A stretch of 32,676 bases of DNA, taken from NCBI GenBank assembly GCA_023249165.1, contig JAHFDE010000001.1:5243-37918 (forward strand). Reading direction: 5' to 3'. A program made the position numbers and the translations under genes. The stretch comes from Candidatus Methylomirabilota bacterium. GTDB taxonomy: Bacteria; Methylomirabilota; Methylomirabilia; Methylomirabilales; CSP1-5. The notes below the pieces were generated by a model. That model did not search any database. It was not told where the DNA came from and saw only the letters and a list, made by a program, of their open reading frames with translations. The stretch's first letter is position 1. Each line of letters opens with the position of its first letter. Positions 3,612 through 22,197 of the stretch are shown piece by piece.

Positions 3612-3992
3612 TTACTCCGCAAGGGGATGACGAGATTGCTTCCTCTGGGCAAGCTGCCTCAGAATCTGCACATTGCCCGAAACGAGAGCTTTCTTCTTGG
3701 CATGCGTCCAGCCCTTGAGCTGGCGTTCACGCTTTAGAGCAGAGGCTTTGTCGGGATGTGGCTCAGAGTAGATGATCCGTCGGAAGCCAAATACTCGCGA
3801 AGTCCGGGTGCTGGGTTTTCCGCCAGCATGCTCGGTGGAGCGTCGCTTGAGATTATCCGTGACCCCGACGTACAACTGCCCATTCTTCAATTGAGCAATG
3901 TAGGTATAATAGCCCTTCGATCCAGAGTCTGTCAGGGTCAACGGAAGCCCTTCGACTCGCCTTGCTCGCTCAGGGCATTCGCCTCGCGCCAC
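3612..3992 (-). CDS. Small GIY-YIG (URI-domain) nuclease-family protein; start codon uncertain
   Basis: The sequence KGYYTYIAQLKNGQLYVGVTDNLKRRSTEH...RERQLKGW matches the GIY-YIG core. The N-terminal extension (ARGECPERARRVEG) is encoded by a locally repeated sequence. An internal TTG start is possible. Confidence 0.75.
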   Translation of the reverse strand: MARGECPERARRVEGLPLTLTDSGSKGYYTYIAQLKNGQLYVGVTDNLKRRSTEHAGGKPSTRTSRVFGFRRIIYSEPHPDKASALKRERQLKGWTHAKKKALVSGNVQILRQLAQRKQSRHPLAE

Positions 3993-4048
3993 GACGACCT
4001 GTCGAATGGCTTGCCATGAGCGAGAGCCACGGAGTGGCGCGAGTCGAA

Positions 4049-4124
4049 TGGCTCCCCGGGCAGGGCTCGAACCTGCAGCCTAGCGGTTAACAGCCGCTCG
4101 CTCCACCATTGAGCTACCGGGGAA
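4049..4124 (-). tRNA. tRNA-Asn (anticodon GTT), CCA encoded
   Basis: Hand-folded cloverleaf: acceptor TCCCCGG/CCGGGGA, anticodon arm AGCGG-CTGTTAA-CCGCT, T-arm GCAGGTTCGAGCCCTGC, 3' GCCA. Confidence 0.9.
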
Positions 4125-4138
4125 TCCTGGCAGTAATG

Positions 4139-4285
4139 CTAGCGCAAATCGGGACGAGCGTCAAAGCGCTTCCTCGTCCCGAACAGGCCGAAAGGGGAGG
4201 CGCTGTCCAGCTCAGCAATATGGACATAGTAGCCCTTCGACTCGGTCGCGCGCAAGACGACGCTCCCTCGCTCAGGGCATTCGCC
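4139..4285 (-). pseudogene. Truncated second copy of the GIY-YIG gene (N-terminal part only)
   Basis: The minus-strand frame reads ECPERGSVVLRATESKGYYVHIAELDSAS..., then diverges and stops at TAG (4139-4141). It shares 12-21-nt identical blocks with the 5' region of the intact copy. Confidence 0.5.
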
Positions 4286-4326
4286 TCACCCTAGCTCGCC
4301 ATGAGCGAGCGGAGCGAGTCGAATGG

Positions 4327-4914
4327 CTACGTCTTCTTCTGGAGTTCCTGCATGACGAGCTTGGCGATGGCCTTCAGCGTTTCGAAGACGCCGATTCCTT
4401 GGGGGGCGACCGCCTCGAACCAGGGGAGGTTGCGGGAATTGAGGGCCTTCTGCAGCTCATCGATGGGGACCGCGTTCTTGAGGTCTCGCTTGTTATATTG
4501 GATCACCAGCGAGATCTTGTCCGGGTCGATCCCCTGGTCCACCAGGTGCTGCTGCATATCGGCCAGGCTCTGGATGTTGGCCTCCATGCGTTCGAGCTGC
4601 GAGTCGGCAACAAAAACCACCCCGTCGGCCCCCTTCAGGATCAGCCTGCGACTGGCCTCATAGAAGATCTGGCCAGGAACCGTGTAGAGGTGGAAACGCG
4701 TCTTGAACCCTCGGATCGCCCCCAGTTCCAGCGGCAGGAAATCAAAGAAGAGCGTCCGCTCCGATTCCGTGGCCAGCGAGATGAGCTTGCCCTTCATCCC
4801 GGGGTCCACCTTCTTGTAAATGTGCTGCAGATTCGTGGTCTTGCCGCAGAGACCTGGGCCGTAGTAGACCAGTTTGCAGTTGATCTCCCGAGCCGCGTAG
4901 TTGATGAAGGACAT
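4327..4914 (-). CDS. mglA: Ras-like small GTPase MglA (mutual gliding-motility/polarity GTPase)
   Basis: This 195-aa ORF is nearly collinear with Myxococcus MglA as I recall it (MSFINY..REINCK.VYYGPGLCGKTTNLQ, TRFHLYTVPGQ, QYNKRDL). Confidence 0.9.
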   Translation of the reverse strand: MSFINYAAREINCKLVYYGPGLCGKTTNLQHIYKKVDPGMKGKLISLATESERTLFFDFLPLELGAIRGFKTRFHLYTVPGQIFYEASRRLILKGADGVVFVADSQLERMEANIQSLADMQQHLVDQGIDPDKISLVIQYNKRDLKNAVPIDELQKALNSRNLPWFEAVAPQGIGVFETLKAIAKLVMQELQKKT

Positions 4915-5479: not shown

Positions 5480-6085
5480 CTACCCCAGCTCCCGCCGTCC
5501 CTCGAGAGCCCGGCCCAACGTGAGCTCGTCGGCGTACTCCAGATCCCCCCCCACGGGGAGGCCATGAGCAATCCGGGTGACCCGCACCCCGAGCGGGGCA
5601 ATCAGGCGGGCGAGGTACAGGGCCGTGGCCTCCCCCTCCACATTCGGGTTGCTGGCCAGGATGACCTCCTTCACCTCCCCGGACCGCAAACGATGTATCA
5701 ACTGTTTCGCGGTGATCTGGTCCGGGCCCCGCCCCTCAATCGGCGAGAGGGACCCCTGGAGGACATGATACAGCCCCTTGAACGTCCCGGTCCGCTCGAT
5801 GGCCAAGAGGTCGTTTGCCTCTTCCACCACGCAGAGGATGCTGCCGTCGCGGGTCGGGTCCTGGCAGATCAGGCACTGCTCCGCCTCAGCGATATTCCCG
5901 CAGCGCTCGCAGATGCGGATCTTCTCCTTCAGCTCCACGATGGCTTCGGCTAACGTCATGGCCTCCTCCCGAGAGGCCTTCAGAAGGTAAAAGGCAAGGC
6001 GCTGGGCAGTCTTCGCACCCACACCCGGAAGGCGCATCAGGACATCGACGAGGCGGTTGAGGGGGGAGGCGTACCGGATCACCAT
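5480..6085 (-). CDS. recR: Recombination protein RecR
   Basis: This 201-aa ORF has an HhH N-terminus (LPGVGAKTAQRLAFYL), the C4 zinc finger CERCGNIAEAEQCLIC and a Toprim region. Confidence 0.95.
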   Translation of the reverse strand: MVIRYASPLNRLVDVLMRLPGVGAKTAQRLAFYLLKASREEAMTLAEAIVELKEKIRICERCGNIAEAEQCLICQDPTRDGSILCVVEEANDLLAIERTGTFKGLYHVLQGSLSPIEGRGPDQITAKQLIHRLRSGEVKEVILASNPNVEGEATALYLARLIAPLGVRVTRIAHGLPVGGDLEYADELTLGRALEGRRELG

Positions 6086-6402: not shown

Positions 6403-8015
6403 GGCTCACCTTGGTGAGAGATGATCTCTCCTCCCTCCTCAACCTCGACGACCCGACCCCCAAACACCTCGAGCGCCTCTCGAACCAGGGGGTGGCTCCG
6501 AGCAGGCATCCGGGCCGGTTCCTCCCGTTTTCCCGCCGCCAAAGGGAGAAAGCGGTAGGCGACCTGGAGGCGTCTGCCGTAGACGGCAGAGATGGTCGAG
6601 GCAAGGAGGCTGCGGACCTCGGGGTCCTCCAGGGTGGAGCGAGCGAAATGATTTCCGTTGGCGAAGGTCAACGTCAAGGTCTCCCCCTCCAGCGTGACCT
6701 CGGCCTCGGCTAAGAGAACACCCAAGGAGCGCCGCTCCGAACCGATCCGCCGCCGCACCTCATGCCATCGGTCCTCAGGCCCGATGGCGGCCGGCGGCGG
6801 GCTAGGGGGGTCGGCTTTCTCCCGAGGCGTGAAAAGTTCAGCCTGTGGGGCAGGAGGCTCGGGGACGACCCCCAGGCGCCCCTCCAGGGACTCCAGGCGC
6901 TTGATCAGGCTTCCCAGGGACTCCAGCCCCCGAGCCTCGGCCATCCGGACCAGCGCCATCTCGAGGACATAGCGTGGTTGGGACGCCCGCCGCATCTCCC
7001 CCTCGGCATCCAAGAGAAATCGCAGCGCCAATTCCAGGTGGGGAATCTCCACGTGCGCCGCCCGCTGCTCGAGATCCCGCATGACCTCCGGAGCAAGCCC
7101 CAGGATCTCTCCTGCCTTGGGGCTGAGCTTCACAAGCAAGAGCGACCGGAGCTGCTCCAACAAGTCGAGGACAAAGGTGCGGAGATCTCCCCCTGTGGCG
7201 GCGAGCTCGCCGACAAGCTCCACGACCTTCCCCGGGTCCCCCGCCAAGCAGGCCCCCATCACCGCCCGGACCACCTCGGGCGCCGTCCATCCCAGGACGG
7301 CCCCCACCACATCGGCAGTCACCCGCTCGCCTCCATACGCGATCACCTGATCGAGGATGCTCTGGGCATCGCGCAGGCTCCCGTCGGCCGCCCGGGCGAG
7401 AGCGGCCAGGGCTTCCGGAGCCACGTCTACCCTTTCAGCCTCCGCAATCGCCCGAAGACGCTCCGTAAGCAGGCCCTGGCCAATGCGACGAAAGTCGTAG
7501 CGCTGGCAGCGGGAGTGGATCGTGGGGGGGACCTTGTGCGGTTCGGTCGTGGCGAGGATAAAAACCACCTTGGGCGGCGGCTCCTCCAGGGTCTTCAGGA
7601 GGGCATTGAAGGCCGAAAGAGAAAGCATATGGACTTCATCGATGATGTAGACCTTGGTGCGGCCTCTGACCGGCTGGTAGATCAACTGTTCCTGCAGATC
7701 CCGCACATGCTCGACACCGGTGTGCGAGGCGCCATCGATCTCTACGCAGTCCACGGCAGCGCCTGCCGTGATCTCGCGGCAGTTGAGGCACTGGTTACAC
7801 GGCTCAGGCGTTGGGCCACTGTCGCAGTTCAAGGCCTTGGCGAGGATCCGCGCAGTGGTGGTCTTACCGACCCCCCGAGGACCCGCGAAGAGAATGGCGT
7901 GAGCCACCCGGCCCTGCTGGAGCGCATTCTTGAGGGTCCGGGTGACCGCCTCCTGCCCCACGACTTCGTCGAAGGTCTGGGGGCGCCACCGCCTAGCTAG
8001 TACCTGATACGACAT
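6399..8015 (-). CDS. dnaX: DNA polymerase III subunit gamma/tau
   Basis: The ORF carries MSYQVLARRWRPQTFDEVVGQE, Walker A GPRGVGKTT and a zinc module CNQCLNC. I prefer the start at ATG 8015, because the upstream 12 codons of the tracked ORF are encoded by a heptamer repeat array. Confidence 0.95.
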   Translation of the reverse strand: MSYQVLARRWRPQTFDEVVGQEAVTRTLKNALQQGRVAHAILFAGPRGVGKTTTARILAKALNCDSGPTPEPCNQCLNCREITAGAAVDCVEIDGASHTGVEHVRDLQEQLIYQPVRGRTKVYIIDEVHMLSLSAFNALLKTLEEPPPKVVFILATTEPHKVPPTIHSRCQRYDFRRIGQGLLTERLRAIAEAERVDVAPEALAALARAADGSLRDAQSILDQVIAYGGERVTADVVGAVLGWTAPEVVRAVMGACLAGDPGKVVELVGELAATGGDLRTFVLDLLEQLRSLLLVKLSPKAGEILGLAPEVMRDLEQRAAHVEIPHLELALRFLLDAEGEMRRASQPRYVLEMALVRMAEARGLESLGSLIKRLESLEGRLGVVPEPPAPQAELFTPREKADPPSPPPAAIGPEDRWHEVRRRIGSERRSLGVLLAEAEVTLEGETLTLTFANGNHFARSTLEDPEVRSLLASTISAVYGRRLQVAYRFLPLAAGKREEPARMPARSHPLVREALEVFGGRVVEVEEGGEIISHQGEP

Positions 8016-8024
8016 AGATCTCTC

Positions 8025-8131
8025 GTTCGTGGTTGATGGTTCAGAGTTCATAGAGGAGCCGGAGCACGGTCACCTGCTCTGAACCATGAACGGCTCGGCT
8101 GAGCTCGCCGTAGCCTATGAACCCTGAACCG
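8025..8131. repeat. Tandem-oligomer inverted repeat, 7-nt unit GGTTCAN (left arm 4 copies; right arm 2+2 copies split by 21 nt)
   Basis: The left arm 8025-8053 reads GTTCGTG GTTGATG GTTCAGA GTTCATA. The right-arm pieces are 8077-8093 (ctctgaaccatgaacgg) and 8115-8131 (ctatgaaccctgaaccg). Confidence 0.8.
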
Positions 8132-8137
8132 AAAAAA

Positions 8138-8421
8138 GTCCTTGGCCGTGCACCCACCGTCGATCCCAACCGCCGGCTCTTACCCAGGACCGAAGGCTCC
8201 AGCCGGGCACCCCTGCGGCACAGGAGGCGGACCGCTTACCGCTGCTTCCTTCCGGACCTGACGGGGTTCACGGATCCCCCTTGCGCAGGACCCGACCCTC
8301 GACGCCCCAACCCCGGGCAGATCGCCCGGAGATCTAGGACCTCGGGCAGGAGTTCAATCCCGCTATAGCGGATTGCGGGTTCAGGGCACCGCTAGCTCCC
8401 CATCTAGCACGGCCAAGGACC
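8138..8421 (-). ncRNA. ffs: Signal recognition particle RNA, long (Bacillus-type, Alu-domain-containing) form
   Basis: The minus strand contains the domain IV motif GTCAGGTCCGGAAGGAAGCAGC. It also has a 5' region (GCCGTGCTAGATGGGGAGCTAGCGGTGCCCTGAACCCGCAATCCGC) close to B. subtilis scRNA as I recall it. A 14-bp terminal helix GTCCTTGGCCGTGC/GCACGGCCAAGGAC is followed by T6. The position upstream of dnaX-ybaB-recR is conserved. Confidence 0.85.
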
Positions 8422-8424
8422 CTT

Positions 8425-8522
8425 CAGAACAGGTATGAGCAATGAGCTATGAGGTTACAGCTTTGGCCTCTGGCTGGTCCCGCTCCGAACTCAGTCCTCA
8501 TCGCTCAGTACTCGATGCTGAC
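8425..8522. repeat. Tandem-oligomer inverted repeat, 7-nt unit (A/T)ATGAGC
   Basis: The left arm reads TATGAGC AATGAGC TATGAGG TTACAGC (about 8433-8461). The right arm reads GAACTCA GTCCTCA TCGCTCA GTACTCG (about 8487-8514). TGAG/CTCA recurs every 7 nt. Confidence 0.65.
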
Positions 8523-8524
8523 TA

Positions 8525-8614
8525 TGGCGGAGAGGCCGGGATTCGAACCCGGGGTGGGTGTCACCCCACACACGCTCTCCAGGCGTGCACCTTAAACCGC
8601 TCGGCCACCTCTCC
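8525..8614 (-). tRNA. tRNA-Ser (anticodon GGA), long variable arm, CCA encoded
   Basis: Hand fold: acceptor GGAGAGG/CCTCTCC, anticodon arm CACGC-CTGGAGA-GCGTG, T-arm CCGGGTTCGAATCCCGG. Confidence 0.9.
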
Positions 8615-8624
8615 GCGTGCACCC

Positions 8625-8717
8625 GTTCATGGTTCATAGATCATGGTTCATGGTATGGACCAGTGAGAATATGAGGCCCGCGTTCCGTCCATGAACCCTG
8701 AACCGTGAACTCTGAGC
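8625..8717. repeat. Tandem-oligomer inverted repeat, 7-nt unit GGTTCAT (4 + 4 copies)
   Basis: The left arm 8625-8653 reads GTTCATG GTTCATA GATCATG GTTCATG G. The right arm 8689-8717 reads CCATGAAC CCTGAAC CGTGAAC TCTGAGC. About 21 of 29 positions are complementary by hand alignment. Confidence 0.85.
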
Positions 8718-8724
8718 GATGTTG

Positions 8725-8820
8725 TGGCGGAGGGGGTGGGATTCGAACCCACGTGCCCCGCTCATCGCGGGACAACCCGATTTCGAGTCGGGCCCGTTAC
8801 ATCCACTTCGGTACCCCTCC
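8725..8820 (-). tRNA. tRNA-Ser (anticodon CGA), 96 nt with long variable arm, CCA encoded
   Basis: Hand fold: acceptor GGAGGGG/CCCCTCC, anticodon arm CCCGA-CTCGAAA-TCGGG, T-arm GTGGGTTCGAATCCCAC. Confidence 0.85.
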
Positions 8821-9328
8821 CGCTCGCCCATCCCAAGCCGCAGGAGTCGGGTGCCTGCCGCCGGGCCAGAAAGAATTCCTGCAGGAGGGCCTGAGACTCC
8901 TCCGCCCGCACACCACTCACCACCTTGACCCGATGATTGAGCCGCGGATCATCGAGGAGACGGTAGACGCTCTCGACGCCGCCTCCCCAGCGATCGGGGG
9001 CGCCGTACACGAGCCCTGCCACCCGCGCATGGAGCAAAGCCCCGGCGCACATCACACACGGTTCCAGGGTGACATATAGCGTGGCCTCGGGAAACCGATA
9101 GTTGCCGACCTGCCGCCCCGCTGCCCGGAGCACCAGGATCTCGGCATGCGCCGTCGGATCCTGGAGCGCGATGGGCTGATTATGCGCGGTAGCCAAGACG
9201 ACCCCATCCTGGATCAGGACAGCCCCCACCGGCACCTCTCCCGTCTCGCCCCCCCGGTGGGCCTCCTGAAGCGCCACATCCATCCACAAGAGATGCCCCT
9301 CGTGGGTTGTCTCTTTCGGCAACCCCAC
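8762..9328 (-). CDS. tadA: tRNA-specific adenosine deaminase TadA (A34 of tRNA-Arg(ACG)); the ORF's 3' 59 nt lie inside tRNA-Ser(CGA)
   Basis: The ORF has the CDA motifs HAEILVLR and LEPCVMCAGAL. The GTG at 9328 is preceded by AGGAGG at 6 nt. There is no in-frame stop before TGA at 8762-8764. Confidence 0.9.
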   Translation of the reverse strand: MGLPKETTHEGHLLWMDVALQEAHRGGETGEVPVGAVLIQDGVVLATAHNQPIALQDPTAHAEILVLRAAGRQVGNYRFPEATLYVTLEPCVMCAGALLHARVAGLVYGAPDRWGGGVESVYRLLDDPRLNHRVKVVSGVRAEESQALLQEFFLARRQAPDSCGLGWASGRGTEVDVTGPTRNRVVPR

Positions 9329-11360: not shown

Positions 11361-11408
11361 GGCGACATATTGTGGGACCACACACCACCACTTTCATGGA
11401 GAAAGCAT

Positions 11409-12455
11409 ATGAGTTCGGTTCCGACAGGAGATAAGCTCGCATCGAACAAGGTGCCTTGGCGGCAGACTGTGGCCAAGTATGAGAATCCAGATCTGCAGCG
11501 CAGTGTGTGGCAGGTCGTCAACACACTTATCCCCTATGTCATTCTGTGGTACCTGATGTATCGCAGCCTGGAAATCTCTTATTGGATTACGCTGGCACTG
11601 TCGGCTCTCACGGCAGGCTTTTTGGTGCGCATCTTTATCATTTTTCACGACTGCGGACACGCTTCCTTTTTCAAATCCCAGAAAGCCAATGACGTTTGGG
11701 GATTTATTGCCGGTGTTTTGACGATGTCGCCCTATTTGGGCTGGCGACGCGAACATGCGATGCACCATGCCACCGCTGGCGATTTGGACCGACGGGGGGT
11801 GGGGGATATCTGGACATTAACGGTGAAGGAATACCTGGAGTTGTCCCCGAGCGGGCGGCTTGGGTATCGGCTGTACCGCAATCCACTGGTGATGTTTGTT
11901 CTTGGGCCCCTTTTCGTTTTCCTGATTAGGCATCGTTTTGCGGGGCCAACCGCAAGCAAGCGAGAACGCCACAGCGTGTATTGGACAAATCTGGCGCTAT
12001 TGGGCATTGTGGCCCTGATGGGTGTCACTATTGGTATCAAGGCATTCGTATCGGTGCACTTGCCGATTGTAATGATTGCAAGCGCGGCTGGGGTGTGGTT
12101 GTTTTACGTGCAGCATCAGTATGAAGGGGTCTACTGGGAGCGTCACGAACATTGGGATTACGTGACCCTGGCCCTACAGGGCAGTTCATTTTATAAACTG
12201 CCCAAGATTTTGCAGTGGTTCACCGGCAACATAGGGTTCCACCACATTCATCACCTGAGCCCCCGCATTCCCAATTACTACCTGGAAAGGTGCCATGAAG
12301 AGAACCCTATGTTCCGGGAAGTGAAACCCATTACATTATTCGCTAGTTTAAAATCGCTCACGTTTCGCCTGTGGGATGAAGAGGGACGCAAGCTGGTGGG
12401 CTTTGGCTACCTCAAAGACCTTCGGAATCAGCAGGCAATGGCTTCTCGACAGTGA
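11409..12455 (+). CDS. Membrane fatty-acid desaturase (histidine-box di-iron family)
   Basis: Three His boxes are present (HDCGH, HAMHH, HHIHH), with hydrophobic segments between them. The ATG at 11409 follows GGAGA at 6 nt. By eye the G+C content is lower than in neighbouring genes. Confidence 0.85.
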   Translation: MSSVPTGDKLASNKVPWRQTVAKYENPDLQRSVWQVVNTLIPYVILWYLMYRSLEISYWITLALSALTAGFLVRIFIIFHDCGHASFFKSQKANDVWGFIAGVLTMSPYLGWRREHAMHHATAGDLDRRGVGDIWTLTVKEYLELSPSGRLGYRLYRNPLVMFVLGPLFVFLIRHRFAGPTASKRERHSVYWTNLALLGIVALMGVTIGIKAFVSVHLPIVMIASAAGVWLFYVQHQYEGVYWERHEHWDYVTLALQGSSFYKLPKILQWFTGNIGFHHIHHLSPRIPNYYLERCHEENPMFREVKPITLFASLKSLTFRLWDEEGRKLVGFGYLKDLRNQQAMASRQ

Positions 12456-12546
12456 AAGGATGCGCACGGGTTCAAGACGAGTCGGACGACCGGCACGGGT
12501 ATCTGTAACCACTCTACGCTGACTGCCATCTCGCGGCAGTCTTCCC

Positions 12547-13821
12547 GTGGTCCGTGTGTGGCCGCGATACGAAGGCCTACTCCGTGGCGTTTGCGGATGG
12601 TCGCGTCGGTCCTGCCCTCTTGACAGCGCCCGTGGCCCTGGCGATACCCAATCAATCCCAACGCTCAGACATACCGTAAACCGCGCAATCGGCAGGTTCT
12701 ACCAGGTGAGAGATCCCGCTTCCTTCGCTGGCCTGATCATTCGCGAAAAGGATCCGGAAAATCTGGAATTTCCCTTCTCCTCGCTCAACAGCTTCGTCAC
12801 ACCTAACGAGCAGTTCTTTATCCGCTCCCATTTCGCCGTACCGAAACTGAATCCCCGCAGCTGGCGGCTTAAGATCGAAGGTCTCGTCGATCGCCCTTGC
12901 CAAATCGATTACAACGACTTGCTGAGGTTGCCGTCCCGCTCGGTGACGACGACGCTCGAATGTGCGGGTAACAGCCGTATTTTTTTGACGCCCAAAGTGG
13001 GCGGTTTGCAGTGGGGCTTGGGCGCGGTGGGCAACGCGGAATGGACGGGTGTCCCCCTCGCAGCCGTGCTGGAGCGCGCCGGGGTGCACGCCGGAACAGT
13101 CGAGGTGGTGCTGCAAGGAGGGGATGCGGGCGAGATCAAGAAGGAACCGCAATCGCCCGGAAAGATTCATTATGCCCGAAGCCTCCCGCTGGAGAAGGCC
13201 TTGCGATCAGAGGTGATCTTGGCCTACCAGATGAACGGCGCACAGCTTCCCATGTCTCATGGCTTCCCTGTGCGGGCTGTCGTGCCCGGCTGGTATGGAA
13301 TGGCGTCGGTCAAATGGCTCACCCGTATCGTCGTCACTGATCGTGTTTTTCGCGGTTACTTCCAGACATCGGACTATGCATACTGGGACCAGCCCGAGGG
13401 GTTGCCAATCCAATTGTTGCCCGTGGCCGAAGTAGAGGTCAAAGCCCAGATTGCACGTCCCGCCCTGCACGAAGTCGTGCGCGCAAATTCGGTTTATCGG
13501 ATGCATGGCGCCGCGTGGGCCGGAGAATCGGAAGTGACCAAGGTGGAGGTGAGCACGAATGGAGGCCGCATGTGGAAGCCGGCAGAGTTCCTCGGTGCTG
13601 CTTCCAGGTATGCCTGGCGCTTGTGGGAATACACCTGGCACACACCGTCGCGCGTAGGACGCTATACGGTGATGGCGCGGGCGAGCGACGCTCGTGGGCG
13701 CGTGCAACCAATGCACCGCGACCCGCATCGTGGAACGTACATGATCAGTCACGTTCAACCCATCGAGGTCGAAGTCCAAGAATCGGCTCCGCCGCCGCCC
13801 ACGGACCGCTACACCATCTGA
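12547..13821 (+). CDS. Sulfite-oxidase-family molybdopterin oxidoreductase with C-terminal Moco-dimerisation-type domain; start uncertain (GTG 12547 or GTG 12706)
   Basis: The molybdenum-ligand cysteine context TLECAGNSR is conserved, along with FFIRSHF and the GFPVRAVVPGWYG.ASVKW motif. There is no in-frame ATG near the 5' end, and I see no obvious Tat or Sec signal. Confidence 0.8.
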   Translation: MVRVWPRYEGLLRGVCGWSRRSCPLDSARGPGDTQSIPTLRHTVNRAIGRFYQVRDPASFAGLIIREKDPENLEFPFSSLNSFVTPNEQFFIRSHFAVPKLNPRSWRLKIEGLVDRPCQIDYNDLLRLPSRSVTTTLECAGNSRIFLTPKVGGLQWGLGAVGNAEWTGVPLAAVLERAGVHAGTVEVVLQGGDAGEIKKEPQSPGKIHYARSLPLEKALRSEVILAYQMNGAQLPMSHGFPVRAVVPGWYGMASVKWLTRIVVTDRVFRGYFQTSDYAYWDQPEGLPIQLLPVAEVEVKAQIARPALHEVVRANSVYRMHGAAWAGESEVTKVEVSTNGGRMWKPAEFLGAASRYAWRLWEYTWHTPSRVGRYTVMARASDARGRVQPMHRDPHRGTYMISHVQPIEVEVQESAPPPPTDRYTI

Positions 13822-13881
13822 ACCTCTCAGCAACGGGGGAGGTGCCGGACGAGGTCAAGGAGTAGACCAGCTAGGTGATTG

Positions 13882-13958
13882 TGGCGCGCCCAAGAGGATT
13901 CGAACCTCTGACCTACGGATTCGTAGTCCGTCGCTCTATCCAGCTGAGCTATGGGCGC
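13882..13958 (-). tRNA. tRNA-Arg (anticodon ACG), CCA encoded
   Basis: Hand fold: acceptor GCGCCCA/TGGGCGC, anticodon arm ACGGA-CTACGAA-TCCGT, T-arm AGAGGTTCGAATCCTCT. Confidence 0.9.
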
Positions 13959-13965
13959 GTCTCAA

Positions 13966-14060
13966 TGCTGGAATGCTAGAACGCTAGGAGGCTAGAAAGC
14001 TTAAACCCAATGCTTCTCTCCCCGGGCATTCCAGCGTCCCAGCCTTCCAGCTTTCTAGCA
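13966..14060. repeat. Tandem-oligomer inverted repeat, 8-nt unit (T/C/G)GCTAGAA (4 + 4 copies)
   Basis: The left arm 13966-14000 reads TGCTGGAA TGCTAGAA CGCTAGGA GGCTAGAA AGC. The right arm 14026-14060 reads GC ATTCCAGC GTCCCAGC CTTCCAGC TTTCTAGC A. Confidence 0.8.
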
Positions 14061-14068
14061 ATAAGACA

Positions 14069-14163
14069 TGGCGGAGAGGCCGGGATTCGAACCCGGGGTA
14101 GGGCTCAACACCCTACAACCGCTTAGCAGGCGGCTGCCTTCAGCCTGGCTCGGCCACCTCTCC
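14069..14163 (-). tRNA. tRNA-Ser (anticodon GCT), long variable arm, CCA encoded
   Basis: Hand fold: acceptor GGAGAGG/CCTCTCC, anticodon arm GCCGC-CTGCTAA-GCGGT. The T-arm and acceptor are identical to those of tRNA-Ser(GGA). Confidence 0.9.
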
Positions 14164-14172
14164 ACACGATGG

Positions 14173-14273
14173 GGTTCATGGTTCATGGATCGTGGTTCAT
14201 GGCTTACGGTCCAAGACCAGAATGTAAGGTCCCGCTCCCGACTATGAACCGTGAACCATGAACTCTGAACTCC
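14173..14273. repeat. Tandem-oligomer inverted repeat, 7-nt unit GGTTCAT (4 + 4 copies); close paralogue of 8625-8717
   Basis: The left arm 14173-14202 reads GGTTCAT GGTTCAT GGATCGT GGTTCAT GG. The right arm 14242-14273 reads CTATGAAC CGTGAAC CATGAAC TCTGAAC TCC. Confidence 0.85.
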
Positions 14274-14295
14274 GATTCCGGCAAGCGGAGTCGGA

Positions 14296-14382
14296 TGGCG
14301 GAGGGGGTAGGATTCGAACCCACGAGGCTCTTCGCCTAACGGTTTTCAAGACCGCCGCCTTCAGCCACTCGGCCACCCCTCC
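14296..14382 (-). tRNA. tRNA-Ser (anticodon TGA), CCA encoded
   Basis: Hand fold: acceptor GGAGGGG/CCCCTCC, anticodon arm GCGGT-CTTGAAA-ACCGT, T-arm GTGGGTTCGAATCCTAC. Confidence 0.9.
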
Positions 14383-14386
14383 GTTT

Positions 14387-14486
14387 GGTTCATGGTTCAG
14401 AGTTGAGGGTTCGGGGTCTAAACCGCATACGGCCTAAGTATACGACGTCCCTGCCCAAATTACCATGAACTATGAATCGCGAACGG
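14387..14486. repeat. Tandem-oligomer inverted repeat, 7-nt unit GGTTCAN (4 + 3 copies, more degenerate)
   Basis: The left arm 14387-14416 reads GGTTCAT GGTTCAG AGTTGAG GGTTCGG GG. The right arm 14463-14486 reads CCATGAAC TATGAAT CGCGAAC GG. Confidence 0.7.
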
Positions 14487-14513
14487 CGATCCCGTTGTGC
14501 GGGATCGTGGCAG

Positions 14514-15803
14514 TCACGCTGGAGGCTCGATTTTCGTGAGGCCGCCCATGTACGGCCGGAGAACTTCGGGGATGGTGACGGTACCGTCGGCCTCCTGGTA
14601 GTTCTCGAGGATGGCGGCCCAGGTCCGACCGATGGCGATGCCGGAGCCATTCAGGGTGTGCACGAATTCTGCCTTCGCCCCCGGGTGAGCGCGGTAGCGA
14701 ATGGCGGCCCGCCGTGCCTGAAAGTCCTCGAAGTTACTGCAGGAAGAGACCTCCCGGTAGACCTGCTGGCTCGCAAACCACACCTCGAGATCGTAGGTCT
14801 TGGCGGCGGCAAAGCCCAGGTCGCCCGTGCAAAGCACCACCACTCGGTAGGGGAGATGAAGCCGCTTCAAGACCTCTTCGGCTTCAGTAGTGAGCTGCTC
14901 TAGCGCCTGATAGGACGTCGCCGACTCGGTGAACTTCACCAGCTCGACTTTGTTGAACTGGTGCTGGCGGATGATCCCCCGCGTATCCTTCCCGTACGAG
15001 CCCGCCTCCCGCCGGAAGCAGGGCGTGTACGCCACGTAACTCAGCGGTAATGTCCCGGGCTCCAGTATCTCCTCCCGGTGGATATTGGTGACCGGGACCT
15101 CCGCCGTGGGAATGAGAAAATACGGATCGTCTGCCGTCTTGAAGAGCTCGTGGGCGAACTTGGGGAGCTGCCCGGTGCCCGTCATACTGTCTTCGCTGAC
15201 CAAGAGAGGTGGGAACACCTCGGTGTAGCCGTGCTCCCGCACGTGCAGGTCGAGCATGAAATTGATCAGGGCCCGCTCGAGGAGCGCCCCTTTCCCTTTC
15301 AGAAGCGGAAAGCGGGCGCCGGCCAGTCGCGCGGCCCGGGCGAGATCCAGGATCCCCAGGTCCTCCCCGATCTCCCAGTGGGGTCGTGGCTCACCATCGA
15401 AGGACCGCGGTGCGCCCCAGCGGCGGACCTCGACATTCTCTTCCGGGCTGCGTCCAACGGGGACGGAAGGGTGAGGGAGGTTCGGGATCAGGAGCAGAAG
15501 GCTACCCAGTTCCTGTTCGACGGCCTGAAGTCGGTCTTCGCTCTCCTTCAGCGCACTGGAAATTTCCCGGCTTCTCGTCACCAGGGCTGTCGCCACATCC
15601 GCGGGCTTCTCGCCCACCCTGGTCTCCTGCACCTGTCGAGAGAGCGCCTTCTTTTCTCGCCGCCATTGCTCAACGTCAACCACCAGCCGCCGCCGTTCGG
15701 CGTCGAGTTTCAGCAGCTTCTCTAAGTCAAATTCTGCTCCCCGCTGCCCAAGCTTCTCCCGGATGAGACCGGCATTTTCCCGAATGAACTTGAGGTCCAG
15801 CAT
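14514..15803 (-). CDS. serS: Seryl-tRNA synthetase
   Basis: The ORF has the N-terminal coiled-coil arm [18 protein letters not shown] and class II motifs ([16 protein letters not shown]). The ATG at 15803 lies 10 nt after the gyrA stop. The upstream 23 codons of the tracked ORF overlap the gyrA tail region. Confidence 0.95.
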
Positions 15804-15813
15804 CGCCCGGCCC

Positions 15814-18357
15814 TTACTCCTCTTCGGGCTCGTCCCCTTCGACAAGCTCAGGGGGGCCTTCGGCCGGCTCAAGGGTGCCCTCGACAGGTTCAGGCCCGGC
15901 CTCCGCGACCTCGTCCTCCTCCATCACGACAGCGGTCACCGCGGCCACGCGGTCCCCCTCCTCCAGGCCCTGGAGCCGCACCCCCTGTGCATCCCGGCCC
16001 GTATCGCGGATCTCCCGGACCCGAAGGCGGGTCACCTTCCCCTCCTGGGAGATCATCATCACCCCGTCCTCCTCCCGGACCTGTTTGATCCCCACGACCG
16101 GGCCGTTCTTGTCGGTCACCCGAATATTGATGATCCCCTTGCCACCGCGCCCCTGGACCCGGTACTCGGAGACATCGGTCCGCTTCCCGAACCCTCGCTC
16201 GCAGACCGTCAGCATCTGGGCGCCCTCAGAGACGATCTCCATCCCGACCACCTGATCTTGCGACTCCAGGCGAATCCCCGTGACCCCTCGCGCTGACCGT
16301 CCCGTGGGCCGGACATCGTCTTCCTTGAACCGGATCGCCATCCCATTTCGGGTCCCCAGGAAGACGTCCTCGGTGCCGCGTGTCATGGCGACCCCGATCA
16401 ACTCATCCCCCTCATCGAGCGAGAGTGCAATGATCCCCCCCGCCCGCGGATTGGCATAGGCGCTGAGCTCCGTCTTCTTCACCACCCCCCGCCTGGTCGC
16501 CATCACCAGATACCGGTCGACCTCAAATTGGCGGATGGGGATCATCGTGGTCACGTGCTCCCCGGACTGCAGCTCGAGGAAGTTGGCATTGGACTTCCCC
16601 CGCGCCGCCCGGCCGAGCTGGGGAATCTCATGAACCTTCAGCCAGTGCACCCGCCCCAGATTAGTAAACAAGAGGATGTAGCTATGGGTCGTAGCCACAA
16701 AGAGGTGCTCGACGTAGTCCTCCTCCTTGGGGGCCATGCCCGTCGTCCCCTTGCCGCCCCGCCGCTGTGCGCGGTAGACGCTGAGCGGACTGCGCTTGAT
16801 ATATCCGCCGTGAGTGACGGTGATCACCATCTCTTCGTCAGCCACCATGTCTTCAAGGCTGATCTCGGTCGTCTCCTCTTCGATCTGGGTCCGGCGCGGA
16901 TCACCGTAGGCCTCCTTGAGCCCCAGCAGCTCCTCCTTGATGATCTGGCGCACCAGCCCCTCACTCTGCAAGATGGCCTGCAGCCGCGCGATGGTCTGCA
17001 GTGTCTCCTGATATTCGTCCTGAATCTTCTGCCGCTCGAGCGCCGTCAGTCGCTGGAGTCGGAGGTCCAGGATGGCCTGGGCCTGGATCGGCGTCATGGT
17101 GAAACGCTGCACCAAACCCGTCCTGGCGTCCTCCACCGCTCGCGAGCGGCGGATGAGGGCGATGACCTCGTCAAGATGGTCCAGGGCGATCCGGTAGCCC
17201 TCCAGGATATGAGCCCGCTCCTCTGCCTTTCGCAGGTCGAAGCGGGTCCGGCGCACCACCACCATGCGCCGATGATCGATGAAGTATTGCAGCTGCTGCT
17301 TCAGCGTGCAGACCTTCGGCTGGTTTTCGACCAGACCCAGCATGATGACGCCGAAGGTGGACTGCATGGGGGTGTGTTTGTAGAGCTGATTCAGGATCGG
17401 CCGGGGCGTCTCGTCCCTCTTCAGCTCCAGGACGATCCGCATCCCTTCCCGATCCGACTCGTCGCGGAGATCGGCGATGCCCTGCACCCTCCCGTCCCGG
17501 ATCAGCTCGGCGATCCGCTCGATGAGCTTCGCCTTGTTGACCTGGTAGGGGAGCTCTGCAATGATGATGCTCTCGCGACCTCCTCGCCCCTTCTCCACGA
17601 AGGCCTTGGCCCGCAACTGGATCAGGCCCCGTCCGGTCCGGTAAGCCTCCTCAATCCCACCACGCCCGTGGATGAAGGCGGCCGTGGGGAAGTCGGGACC
17701 GGGGAGGACCGCCATCAGCTCTTTGAGGGAGACGTCCGGGTTCTCCAGCTGCAGGATCACCGCATTCACCACCTCTCCCAGGTTATGGGGCGGGATGTTG
17801 GTGGCCATGCCGACGGCGATCCCCGACGAGCCGTTCACGAGAAGGTTGGGGAGGGCGGCCGGCAAGAGCGCCGGCTCCTGAAGGGTGTCATCGAAATTGG
17901 GGACGAAGTCGACCGTCTCCTTGTCGATGTCTCGAAGCAGCTCCTGGGCGATCCGGGCTAACCTGACCTCGGTGTAGCGCATCGCGGCGGGCGCATCGCC
18001 ATCGACAGACCCGAAGTTCCCCTGCCCGTCGATCAGGGGGTAGCGCATCGAGAAATCCTGGACGAGACGGACAATGGTGTCGTAGACGGCCGCATCGCCG
18101 TGCGGATGATACTTCCCCAGGACCTCTCCCACCACCCGGGCCGCCTTCTTGTAGGGGCGATTGAAGGCGAGTCCCAGCTCTTGCATGGCATAGAGCACCC
18201 GGCGGTGCACCGGTTTCAGCCCGTCCCGGACATCGGGCAGGGCCCGCCCGATGATGACGCTCATGGCGTAGTCCAGGTACGACCGCCGCATCTCCTCGTG
18301 GATGTCGGTGGGTCTTACCTCGCCGATCCGCGGCTCTTCGGTCCGATCCTCTGGCAC
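15814..18357 (-). CDS. gyrA: DNA gyrase subunit A
   Basis: This 847-aa ORF carries [31 protein letters not shown], the active-site region AAMRYTE, C-terminal beta-pinwheel repeats and an acidic tail. It starts with GTG. Confidence 0.97.
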
Positions 18358-18446
18358 GCCTTCGCCTTCCTAGTACCGACCTAACCCTTCGAACTTCCCA
18401 GGGCTGGTACTGAGTGGGCAAAATGCAAACGCATTTCACCATGTGA

Positions 18447-18523
18447 CAATTGAACAATAGAACAGTAGACCGCAATGGAGCCTTTTTTCAGGATCAGTCT
18501 ATTGTTCCAATGCTCCATTGCTC
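18447..18523. repeat. Tandem-oligomer inverted repeat, 8-nt unit GA(A/G)CAAT(N), in the A/T-rich gyrB-gyrA spacer
   Basis: The left arm reads TGAACAAT AGAACAGT AGACCGCA ATGGAGC. The reverse complement of the right arm reads GAGCAATG GAGCATTG GAACAATA GACTG. Two blocks are complementary: gaacaataga/tctattgttc and gcaatggagc/gctccattgc. Confidence 0.6.
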
Positions 18524-18524
18524 T

Positions 18525-18551
18525 AAAGTAAACGCGCTTCGTGCGTTTACT

Positions 18552-18553
<2 letters not shown>
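18525..18553 (-). other. Perfect 11-12-bp hairpin (AAAGTAAACGC / GCGTTTACTTT) overlapping the gyrB stop codon
   Basis: The sequence is taaagtaaacgcgcttcgtgcgtttacttta. The gyrB TAA lies at 18552-18554. No U-run follows on the minus strand. Confidence 0.6.

Positions 18554-22197
<3,644 letters not shown>

Follow-up and report, generated by a model that had tools for sequence, protein, structure and literature searches.

The spacers of stable-RNA and housekeeping gene strings in a 32,676-nt stretch of a Candidatus Methylomirabilota genome (contig JAHFDE010000001.1; the window in what follows) carry elements of a common build for which we propose the name tandem-array inverted repeat (TAIR). A TAIR is ~90-105 bp long and consists of three to five tandem units of 7 or 8 bp, a family-specific centre of ~25-50 bp and the units again in inverted orientation, often with a small G+C-rich palindrome ahead; each unit combines a conserved core of 5-6 bp with one or two free positions. 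Comparison of related loci shows, at the level of sequence, that these cassettes form families and that they are gained, lost and replaced whole in the spacers of co-directional strings of housekeeping and stable-RNA genes. We suggest that TAIRs are dispersed, exchangeable DNA cassettes of tandem 7-8-mers, akin to repetitive extragenic palindromes (REPs) and to MITEs (miniature inverted-repeat transposable elements), which persist in those parts of stable-RNA precursors that are discarded; we regard the chances of this reading as evenly balanced.

The window holds seven such elements of four unit classes within 32.7 kb (Table 1). Three of them, elements A, B and C, lie in the tRNA string downstream of serS, where the first-pass annotation had placed three elements with 7-nt and 8-nt units; inspection of the sequence confirms all three there, with arms characterised by Tandem Repeats Finder (TRF), an inverted-repeat search and our detector. 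The genes of all six tRNAs in the window are on the minus strand (ARAGORN), so that an element lying before a tRNA is upstream of it in the direction of transcription, which runs from serS through tRNA-Ser(tga) and tRNA-Ser(gct) to tRNA-Arg(acg) with spacers of 131, 132 and 110 nt, respectively. In elements A to C, three to five tandem units of 7 or 8 nt per arm face inverted copies across a centre of 24-45 nt, and the repeat finder gives arms of 28-31 nt that are 71-80% complementary. The arms of element A have a period of 8 with 4.8 and 3.9 copies (TRF); the left arm reads AATGCTGG AATGCTAG AACGCTAG GAGGCTAG AAAGCT and the right arm GCATTCCA GCGTCCCA GCCTTCCA GCTTTCTA GC. Element B has a period of 7 (TRF), with four GGTTCAT-type units facing four nnTGAAC units in inverted repeat arms of 30 nt that are 80% complementary, and element C has the same facing units in a degenerate form. 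The detector, which combines an inverted repeat with a period 6-9 autocorrelation of at least 0.6 in both arms, scores element A at 19 (period 8), element B at 16.2 (period 7) and element C at 9.2; six elements of the window pass, whereas 30 dinucleotide shuffles yield 0.03 on average and never more than 1, the seventh element being weaker.

Cassette families and whole-cassette replacement

The exchange of one cassette for another can be followed in ten contigs from independent ENA, JGI and NCBI assemblies that encode an identical SerS protein. Over the 2,487 nt upstream, these contigs differ by at most 11 substitutions, which are not sorted by allele, and downstream they are identical for ~490 nt or more, a stretch that takes in tRNA-Ser(tga) and the two spacers and two tRNAs following it. 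The spacer between serS and tRNA-Ser(tga), in contrast, is occupied by a 104-nt GTCCAAn cassette in six of the contigs and by an unrelated 100-nt GTTCAT cassette in the other four, and the swapped stretch extends from just after the serS stop codon up to the base before the tRNA.

For the wider comparison, relatives were gathered by exact-protein look-ups, giving 14 non-redundant NC10-like loci. Their SerS proteins are 94% (L183), 92% (L184, L161), 85% (L163-165, L166), 83% (L168) and 81% (L169) identical to that of the window and, in the more distant relatives, 79% (L081), 73% (L170), 67% (L001), 66% (L171), 64% (L172) and 62% (L084). SerS homologues named Ca. Methylomirabilis or candidate division NC10 are 92-94% identical, and the genome of the window is NC10/Methylomirabilota-like. 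Scans of GTDB and JGI metagenomes anchored on serS returned mostly distant phyla; L001, L081 and L084 are the NC10-like loci among the matches listed.

In the NC10-like loci the lengths of tRNA-tRNA spacers are bimodal, with either 1-4 nt (5 cases) or 68-183 nt (28 cases, mode ~103-125). Of the 28 long spacers, 21 score as TAIRs in the detector, compared with none of 560 shuffled spacers, and several of the undetected ones contain degenerate versions by eye. In other phyla (157 loci, among the matches listed) spacer lengths vary continuously, and among 44 long spacers the detector picks out 7; clear elements beyond NC10 are found in metagenome-assembled genomes (MAGs) labelled Nitrospirae, Nitrospinae and Deltaproteobacteria, and Bacillus-type genomes give at most a weak period-6 match.

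The units of these elements fall into the families GTTCAnn, GTTGAGA, GTCCAAn, GCTAGAAn (8 nt) and GTCCGAn as well as ACCGAYG/ACCGTTG, ATCAGCY, (A/C)TGAGnn, TTCGGAT and ACAATAGA (8 nt). Membership extends beyond the units: 14 GTTCA-type copies from eight genomes can be aligned including part of the centre, and in at least 9 of the 14 the centre has a motif resembling GGGAC-C-TTATAnT, oriented the same way with respect to the downstream gene. The centre of element B is homologous to that of its paralogue upstream of tRNA-Ser(gga) in the window, with which it has the motif GGRRCGCGGGMCYTMAYATTCT in common, and to those of copies in relatives. The same family occurs at non-orthologous spacers, as for GTCCAAn (serS to tRNA-Ser(tga) in L163, tRNA-Ser(gct) to tRNA-Arg in L169, tRNA-Ser(cga) to tRNA-Ser(gga) in L170) and (A/C)TGAGnn (tRNA-Ser(gga) to the signal recognition particle (SRP) RNA in the window, tRNA-Ser(gct) to tRNA-Arg in L168). 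Conversely, the orthologous spacer between tRNA-Ser(gct) and tRNA-Arg holds GCTAGAAn in the window, L183 and L163, ACCGAYG in L184, L081 and L170, and GTCCGAn in L161, so that the families differ even among relatives with 92-94% SerS identity (window, L183, L184 and L161). The suggestion of the first-pass annotation that the layout is kept while the unit changes is borne out: three to five units per arm, arms of ~25-40 nt, a centre (24-45 nt in elements A to C) and a place just upstream of an RNA gene recur in the window and in the orthologous spacers of every NC10-like relative examined.

Occupancy varies outside the tRNA strings as well. The gyrB-gyrA spacer is 9-19 nt long in L161, L163 and L169 and 40 nt in L168, whereas in the window, L084 and L166 it reaches 181-288 nt and contains an element. 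The copy in the window (18425-18560) aligns over 142 columns, at a mean column identity of 77%, with one from L004, a MAG of the Nitrospirae with a SerS 59% identical, where the element occupies the spacer between serS and the tRNA and runs opposite to the direction of transcription. In L172, three near-identical copies of AACCGACAACGGACAACCGG...GATCGGTTGTCCGTTGTCGGTT (12430-12500, 12640-12710 and 12870-12950) lie within 600 nt around tRNA-Ser(cga) and tRNA-Ser(gga), showing local multiplication of a family, and a degenerate relative is found ~1 kb upstream (~11530-11595).

On a finer scale, sequence comparison shows that slippage alters the arrays in steps of a single unit, each arm changing independently of the other, and that centres are replaceable. 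Compared with the window copy, element A of L183 carries a 1-nt indel in the centre and a few substitutions, and one of its arms is shorter by exactly one 8-nt unit. The proximal arm of element B reads CA-TGAAC in three of four units in the window and (C/G)C-TGAAC in L183; here the core is kept, and the variable dinucleotides have been homogenised differently within each arm. Element C retains its arms in L183 together with a centre that is ~90% conserved; in L184 and L161 the same arms enclose a different centre. Slippage plus inverted duplication had been proposed as the generating mechanism in the first-pass annotation: the slippage is borne out by the single 8-nt unit that separates the window from L183, whereas generation in situ is contradicted by families that have centres of their own, occur at non-orthologous spacers and in another phylum, and are swapped as whole cassettes.

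Spread, persistence and alternative explanations

We suggest that the cassettes spread by recombination via the near-identical flanking tRNA genes and probably also through recognition of the repeated core or the hairpin by some enzyme or process. They would persist because the spacer is transcribed yet thrown away: RNase P would cut at the 5' end of the tRNA, a few nt past the proximal arm, and the long, register-tolerant hairpin would probably be a substrate of RNase III or of an enzyme like it. In that case the cassette would do no harm, or be of slight use as a spacer that aids processing or insulates, and the RNA hairpin may be at most a secondary feature that the cell can exploit. In a bolder version, TAIRs would be a distinct, unnamed class of mobile spacer cassette that homes to the 5' flanks of stable-RNA genes and to other intra-operon spacers, whose movement or copying is due to an enzyme, or to a process templated by RNA or a hairpin, that reads the 5-6-nt core, and that is exchanged between lineages as distant as Methylomirabilota and Nitrospirota, with families competing for one spacer; we consider this version distinctly doubtful.

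Several observations weigh against exchangeable cassettes as the whole explanation. No transposase or recombinase gene is found in the scanned open reading frames (ORFs) of the window or among the called genes beside the elements (fetched loci, ~2 Mb around serS), in which the sole recombinase-family gene is a PF07508 fragment ~6 kb from the L172 elements. Likewise, no target-site duplication is visible flanking either swap allele, the window elements or any junction inspected, and the exchange at orthologous spacers could be ordinary homologous recombination via the conserved tRNA genes rather than transposition. The near-universal occupancy of long spacers points to a function or a strict target rule, and so does position: 35 of 36 tRNA-adjacent elements lie between co-directional features and none at convergent ends, elements are very strongly confined to the upstream side of stable-RNA genes, no relative examined having one after the final tRNA of a cluster, and gaps touching a tRNA make up 24% of those of at least 80 nt yet contain 69% of all elements. 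The single orientation of the centre and the three GTTCA copies with a promoter match of 11/12 (see below) are unlike a purely selfish element. The architecture is enriched beside tRNAs, yet it is not tRNA-specific, for it is present in the gyrB-gyrA and SRP RNA-dnaX spacers too.

One alternative, in line with the first-pass annotation, is that the elements are RNA processing hairpins of ~30 bp per arm that are selected in place, e.g. as exonuclease blocks or as RNase III entry sites at which a polycistronic precursor is divided into its tRNAs, with the unit sequence free as long as the arms are complementary. Stable pairing of the arms is predicted on the transcribed strand, and the predicted hairpins are far more stable than dinucleotide shuffles (element A, dG -53.9 and z -5.7; element B, z -4.9; element C, z -2.1). 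The tRNA-adjacent elements also end 4-12 nt ahead of the mature tRNA 5' end, between co-directional genes, and long spacers remain occupied across the clade despite the turnover of their sequence. A selected RNA hairpin should, however, be enriched in G·U pairs on the transcribed strand, and no such enrichment is seen: the mismatches in 37 tRNA-adjacent elements comprise 42 G·U, 44 A·C and 100 others, and those in the NC10-like loci 21 G·U against 38 A·C. Nor is the transcribed strand the more stable one, being predicted to be so in only 12 of 32 spacers. Complementarity between the arms is 0.80 in the best register, 0.75 when slid by one unit, 0.76 when slid by two and 0.20 off-period; slid arms thus pair nearly as well as arms in register, and the variable positions therefore do not co-vary between the arms. 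In addition, copy number changes independently in each arm, the same tRNAs are 1-4 nt apart without an element in some relatives, and the same families occur between protein genes, in one case opposite to transcription. The arms are two arrays of one core in opposite orientation, and the family-level "compensation" is that of any inverted duplication or family replacement. By these tests the positive evidence for selection on pairing, and with it the original argument for selection on structure, falls away; a register-tolerant hairpin may still form and be used. We find selection of a processing hairpin in place unlikely.

Alternatively, at least the GTTCAnn elements could be promoter cassettes with flanking operator arrays, in which the centre provides the -10 box, the last upstream unit the -35 box and the arrays bind a multimeric regulator of stable RNA synthesis; every tRNA would then be served by a promoter of its own. 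The unit GTTCACA/GTTGACA resembles the -35 sequence TTGACA, and three copies have matches of 11/12 each, TTCACA-N18-TATAAT in L168 and L081 and TTGACA-N16-TATACT in L170; their -10 boxes lie 46-47 nt upstream of the tRNA. Among 16 GTTCA-family copies, 7 match the -10 box at 5/6 or better when read forward and 3 when read in reverse, the A+T-rich TTATAnT centre motif keeps one orientation, and the small G+C palindrome ahead of many cassettes is similar to the stem of a terminator. Yet under a sigma-70 rule (hexamers at -35 and -10 with a spacing of 16-18 nt, 9/12 or more positions matched, A2 and T6) only 3 of 32 spacers pass, against ~1 in shuffles; all window elements fail, the window copies reaching only 8/12, and no site is found in window positions 13800-14600 and 7950-8950. 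The GTCCAA, GCTAGAA, CTGAG and ACCGA families lack a -10-like box, and neither tRNA cluster contains a terminator-like T-tract or an intrinsic terminator (G+C-rich stem plus T-tract). A promoter in the loop was rejected as a general explanation, given 3 of 32 spacers and none in the window, and was kept for the GTTCA family only, some cassettes of which may, judging from these matches, carry promoters. As an account of the elements, promoter cassettes with operator arrays are improbable.

Ribbon-helix-helix proteins bind tandem units of 7 and 8 bp, as in the omega heptads, MetJ metboxes and ParG boxes. By analogy, TAIRs could be arrays of binding sites in double-stranded DNA, with one small protein per unit, and could act in nucleoid organisation or in a centromere-like manner near the origin. 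A core of 5-6 bp with one or two free positions, three to five repeats, direct as well as inverted arrays and the lack of register-specific pairing would fit such a role, as would the origin-proximal position of the window, where dnaN-gyrB-gyrA-serS and the genes yidC, mnmE, rsmG and parA occupy opposite strands. For the same architecture, Aklujkar et al. have proposed IHF/HU or a global regulator as the bound protein (PMC2700814). At least four unrelated cores within 11 kb of one genome would, on the other hand, need as many proteins, near-identical strains exchange cores at a housekeeping locus, no candidate gene for a binding protein is linked to the elements, and the arrays are 25-50 bp apart, unlike the contiguous omega and MetJ operators. 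Binding-site arrays are very improbable. Integron attC, parS and CIRCE, whose likeness was considered by eye, were rejected because their core sequences do not fit and the other unit families share nothing with them.

That the elements are chance or assembly artefacts, i.e. low-complexity slippage products without a common nature, has virtually no chance of being correct: N-runs and a garbled spacer are found in one relative (L167), but the counts in shuffled sequence refute it together with the recurrence of both swap alleles, in four and six independent assemblies, and families are conserved across genomes.

Features of the window and of related loci

Table 1. Positions of tandem-array elements, small palindromes and adjoining genes in the window (parts of an element follow the element).
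Feature	Position	Strand	Location and remarks
Element A, 8-nt family GCTRGAAn	13964-14060	-	whole tRNA-Ser(gct) to tRNA-Arg(acg) spacer
Element A, parts	arms 13964-14001 and 14026-14059, centre 14002-14025	-	
Element B, 7-nt family GTTCAnn	14173-14270 (first-pass 14173-14273)	-	tRNA-Ser(tga) to tRNA-Ser(gct) spacer
Element B, parts	arms 14173-14202 and 14243-14270, centre 14203-14242	-	
Element C, degenerate GTTCAnn family	14387-14486	-	serS to tRNA-Ser(tga) spacer
Element C, parts	arms 14387-14416 and 14462-14486, centre 14417-14461	-	
Element, (A/C)TGAGnn family	8433-8524 (detector 8437-8513)	-	between tRNA-Ser(gga) and SRP RNA
GTTCAnn element, paralogous to element B	8624-8718	-	between tRNA-Ser(cga) and tRNA-Ser(gga)
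Weaker GTTCAnn element	8038-8130	-	between SRP RNA and dnaX
Element with 8-nt unit, ACAATAGA family	18447-18520		gyrB-gyrA spacer; annotated to 18556 with small palindrome
Small G+C-rich palindrome TCCGAYTCCG...CGGAATCGGA	14271-14295	-	directly after tRNA-Ser(tga), ahead of element B; fold
Small palindrome CGATCCCG-N5-CGGGATCG	14487-14507	-	just 3' of serS stop codon, ahead of element C; fold
Small palindrome	18522-18556		gyrB-gyrA spacer, beside element 18447-18520
tRNA-Arg(acg)	13882-13958	-	ARAGORN and Rfam
tRNA-Ser(gct)	14069-14163	-	ARAGORN and Rfam
tRNA-Ser(tga)	14296-14382	-	ARAGORN and Rfam
serS	14514-15872	-	upstream of tRNA string; stop at 14514

On the transcribed strand, a small G+C-rich palindrome lies ahead of element B and another ahead of element C; the first-pass annotation had described neither. 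Comparable small palindromes lie ahead of arrays in L163, L166, L168, L169, L183, L184 and L084, frequently in the form GATCCCGC-N3-5-GCGGGATC directly after the upstream gene or tRNA, and the gyrB-gyrA spacer of L168 contains the small palindrome alone, without a tandem-array element. The small palindrome may be a separate REP-like module of a composite cassette.

In Rfam, only the tRNAs and the SRP RNA reach the gathering threshold, and the matches of the spacers at E<=1 are chance matches far below it; a distant blastn search of the PLSDB plasmids gave no match to element B. In the SRP RNA-dnaX spacer, the first ATG of the dnaX ORF (8049-8051, minus strand) falls within the proximal array (8038-8053), and a hairpin at this ATG could occlude translation initiation. 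L170 also has a GTTCA-type element in this spacer, and its array stops at the called dnaX start.

The unit cores GTTCA, GTCCGAA and TTCGGAT are similar to the tRNA T-loop sequence GTTCRAAT (window 14173-14270 and relatives; L001 7423-7505; L161 6530-6619), and UGAACC in the proximal arm could pair with GGUUCG in the T-arm of the downstream tRNA. This likeness may reflect coincidence or shared descent of the families; as the families probably have a common origin, the odds of such a coincidence cannot be put in figures.

In L001, the spacer between tRNA-Ser(cga) and tRNA-Ser(gga) is 579 nt long (7794-8372) and contains an ORF of ~118 aa with a DTGA motif (retropepsin-like), which is flanked by TTCAGCC/ATCAGCG heptamer arrays and G/C-rich palindromes. 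L169 (11297-11434) and L170 (~5600-5741) share a block of ~90 nt, CTTGACAGA...TCTCGACG...TCTATGCTATAG, that ends at a tRNA and occurs where the first tRNA of the string has no upstream tandem-array element; it looks like the promoter region of the cluster itself. A difference between L166 and L167 was discarded as biology since it is explained by N-runs in the L167 assembly (GCA_012974965.1, one MAG), which has N-runs and a garbled serS-tRNA spacer at 11380-11720; tandem-array spacers seem to break short-read assemblies.

Elsewhere in the window, a 21-nt tandem repeat of 2.8 copies (CCTTCGACAGGCTCAGGGGGG, 15836-15894) lies in the 3' end of gyrA just upstream of the likely start of serS, which is probably near residue 24 of the ORF. 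Repeats of ~30 nt, CATGAGCGAG...GAGTCGAATGGCT (3976-4050 and 4229-4330), surround tRNA-Asn (4049-4123) and ~180 nt, and an ORF with a GIY-YIG domain (3612-3992) adjoins this repeat-flanked tRNA; the repeats could be an att-like remnant or a homing-type insertion.

Relation to known repeats and implications

The REPs of proteobacteria, together with bacterial interspersed mosaic elements (BIMEs) and REP doublets forming hairpins (REPINs), are short palindromes dispersed in intergenic regions, inside operons and at 3' ends, arranged as inverted pairs, and are targets of IS110-family insertion sequences (ISs); proposed roles include mRNA stability, termination and the binding of gyrase or IHF. 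A REP is a single imperfect palindrome of 20-40 bp with a GTAG/CGTC tag and a cognate REP-associated tyrosine transposase (RAYT), whereas the arms of the window elements are arrays of tandem 7-8-mers, no tag was identified and no RAYT was found in the loci around serS, no genome-wide search having been made. The small GATCCCGC...GCGGGATC palindromes ahead of the arrays could be REP-like. MITEs such as Correia/NEMIS, ERIC, RUP and BOX form hairpins in transcripts shared with the adjoining genes and are in some cases cut by RNase III or carry promoters. The window elements are MITE-like in being small (90-105 bp), non-coding, bounded by inverted repeats, multicopy and polymorphic in presence and absence, with filled and empty sites in relatives both at gyrB-gyrA and at tRNA junctions; unlike MITEs, which have unique terminal inverted repeats and target-site duplications, they have no visible duplication and their inverted repeats are internally tandem. 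A selected processing stem of the RNase III type would be expected to show compensatory changes preserving particular base pairs, and to tolerate G·U on the transcribed strand alone; the elements show neither sign in their sequences and predicted folds.

Cyanobacterial short tandemly repeated repetitive (STRR) sequences are tandem heptamers in intergenic regions of operons whose units differ between strains while the position is kept. In contrast to the window elements, they are mostly single direct arrays, often much longer, in a different phylum, and inverted pairing of arrays is uncommon in Nostoc. In the omega heptads of pSM19035 and the MetJ metboxes, one ribbon-helix-helix dimer binds to each of a contiguous series of 7- or 8-bp units, which run in direct as well as inverted orientation. 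Such operators belong to a plasmid or a regulon and lie at the promoters that they control, with one unit sequence per protein and without a centre of 25-50 bp; the window elements, known from their sequence, resemble them only in the unit period and the direct/inverted layout.

The closest architecture is that of paired sites in Geobacter metallireducens (Gmet_I1xx-I3xx), where 24, 21 and 8 pairs of three to five tandem octa-, nona- or heptanucleotides (GTTGCTYN, TCTCCGTS[Y], MTYCTGA) lie on opposite strands at a variable distance (Aklujkar et al. 2009, PMC2700814). These sites are multicopy, mostly intergenic and of several unit classes, their function is unknown, and global regulators, possibly combinations of IHF/HU, were suggested as binders; the IS110-family element ISGme8 is inserted at a fixed distance beside class 1 sites (PMC2700814). 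The window elements are similar in having three to five units per arm, periods of 7 and 8 and several coexisting classes in multiple copies. The likeness is one of architecture: the Geobacter sites were described genome-wide beside protein genes and not as tRNA-spacer fillers, neither cassette swapping nor sharing across phyla has been reported for them, and no IS insertion is seen beside the window elements. Xanthomonas genomes contain 70-75 convergent pairs of GGGAATC heptamer arrays each, which are intergenic, mostly transcribed, conserved in type between species and were studied as G-quadruplex formers (Rehm et al. 2015, PMC4692102). This is a single G-rich unit for which no tRNA association has been reported, and the window units are not G-tracts. 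The window elements belong to the type of paired inverted arrays of tandem 7-9-mers seen in Geobacter and Xanthomonas, here within ~100 bp. Neither of these papers explains the architecture, and the literature searched contains no account of such elements for NC10 or in the role of cassettes in tRNA spacers.

REPs and MITEs influence how operons are expressed and how plastic genomes are, and the tandem 7-8-mer subtype has only been noted in passing, without explanation, in Geobacter and Xanthomonas. For annotators, the findings imply caution in that a conserved hairpin architecture in tRNA spacers need not be a selected RNA structure. The lineage described here provides a clean system, with defined spacers between invariant tRNA genes, competing families and near-clonal strains that differ only in the cassette, which makes it testable by what route the elements move, in which form they act (DNA, RNA or arrays for protein binding), and whether tRNA operons shelter them or actively use them.

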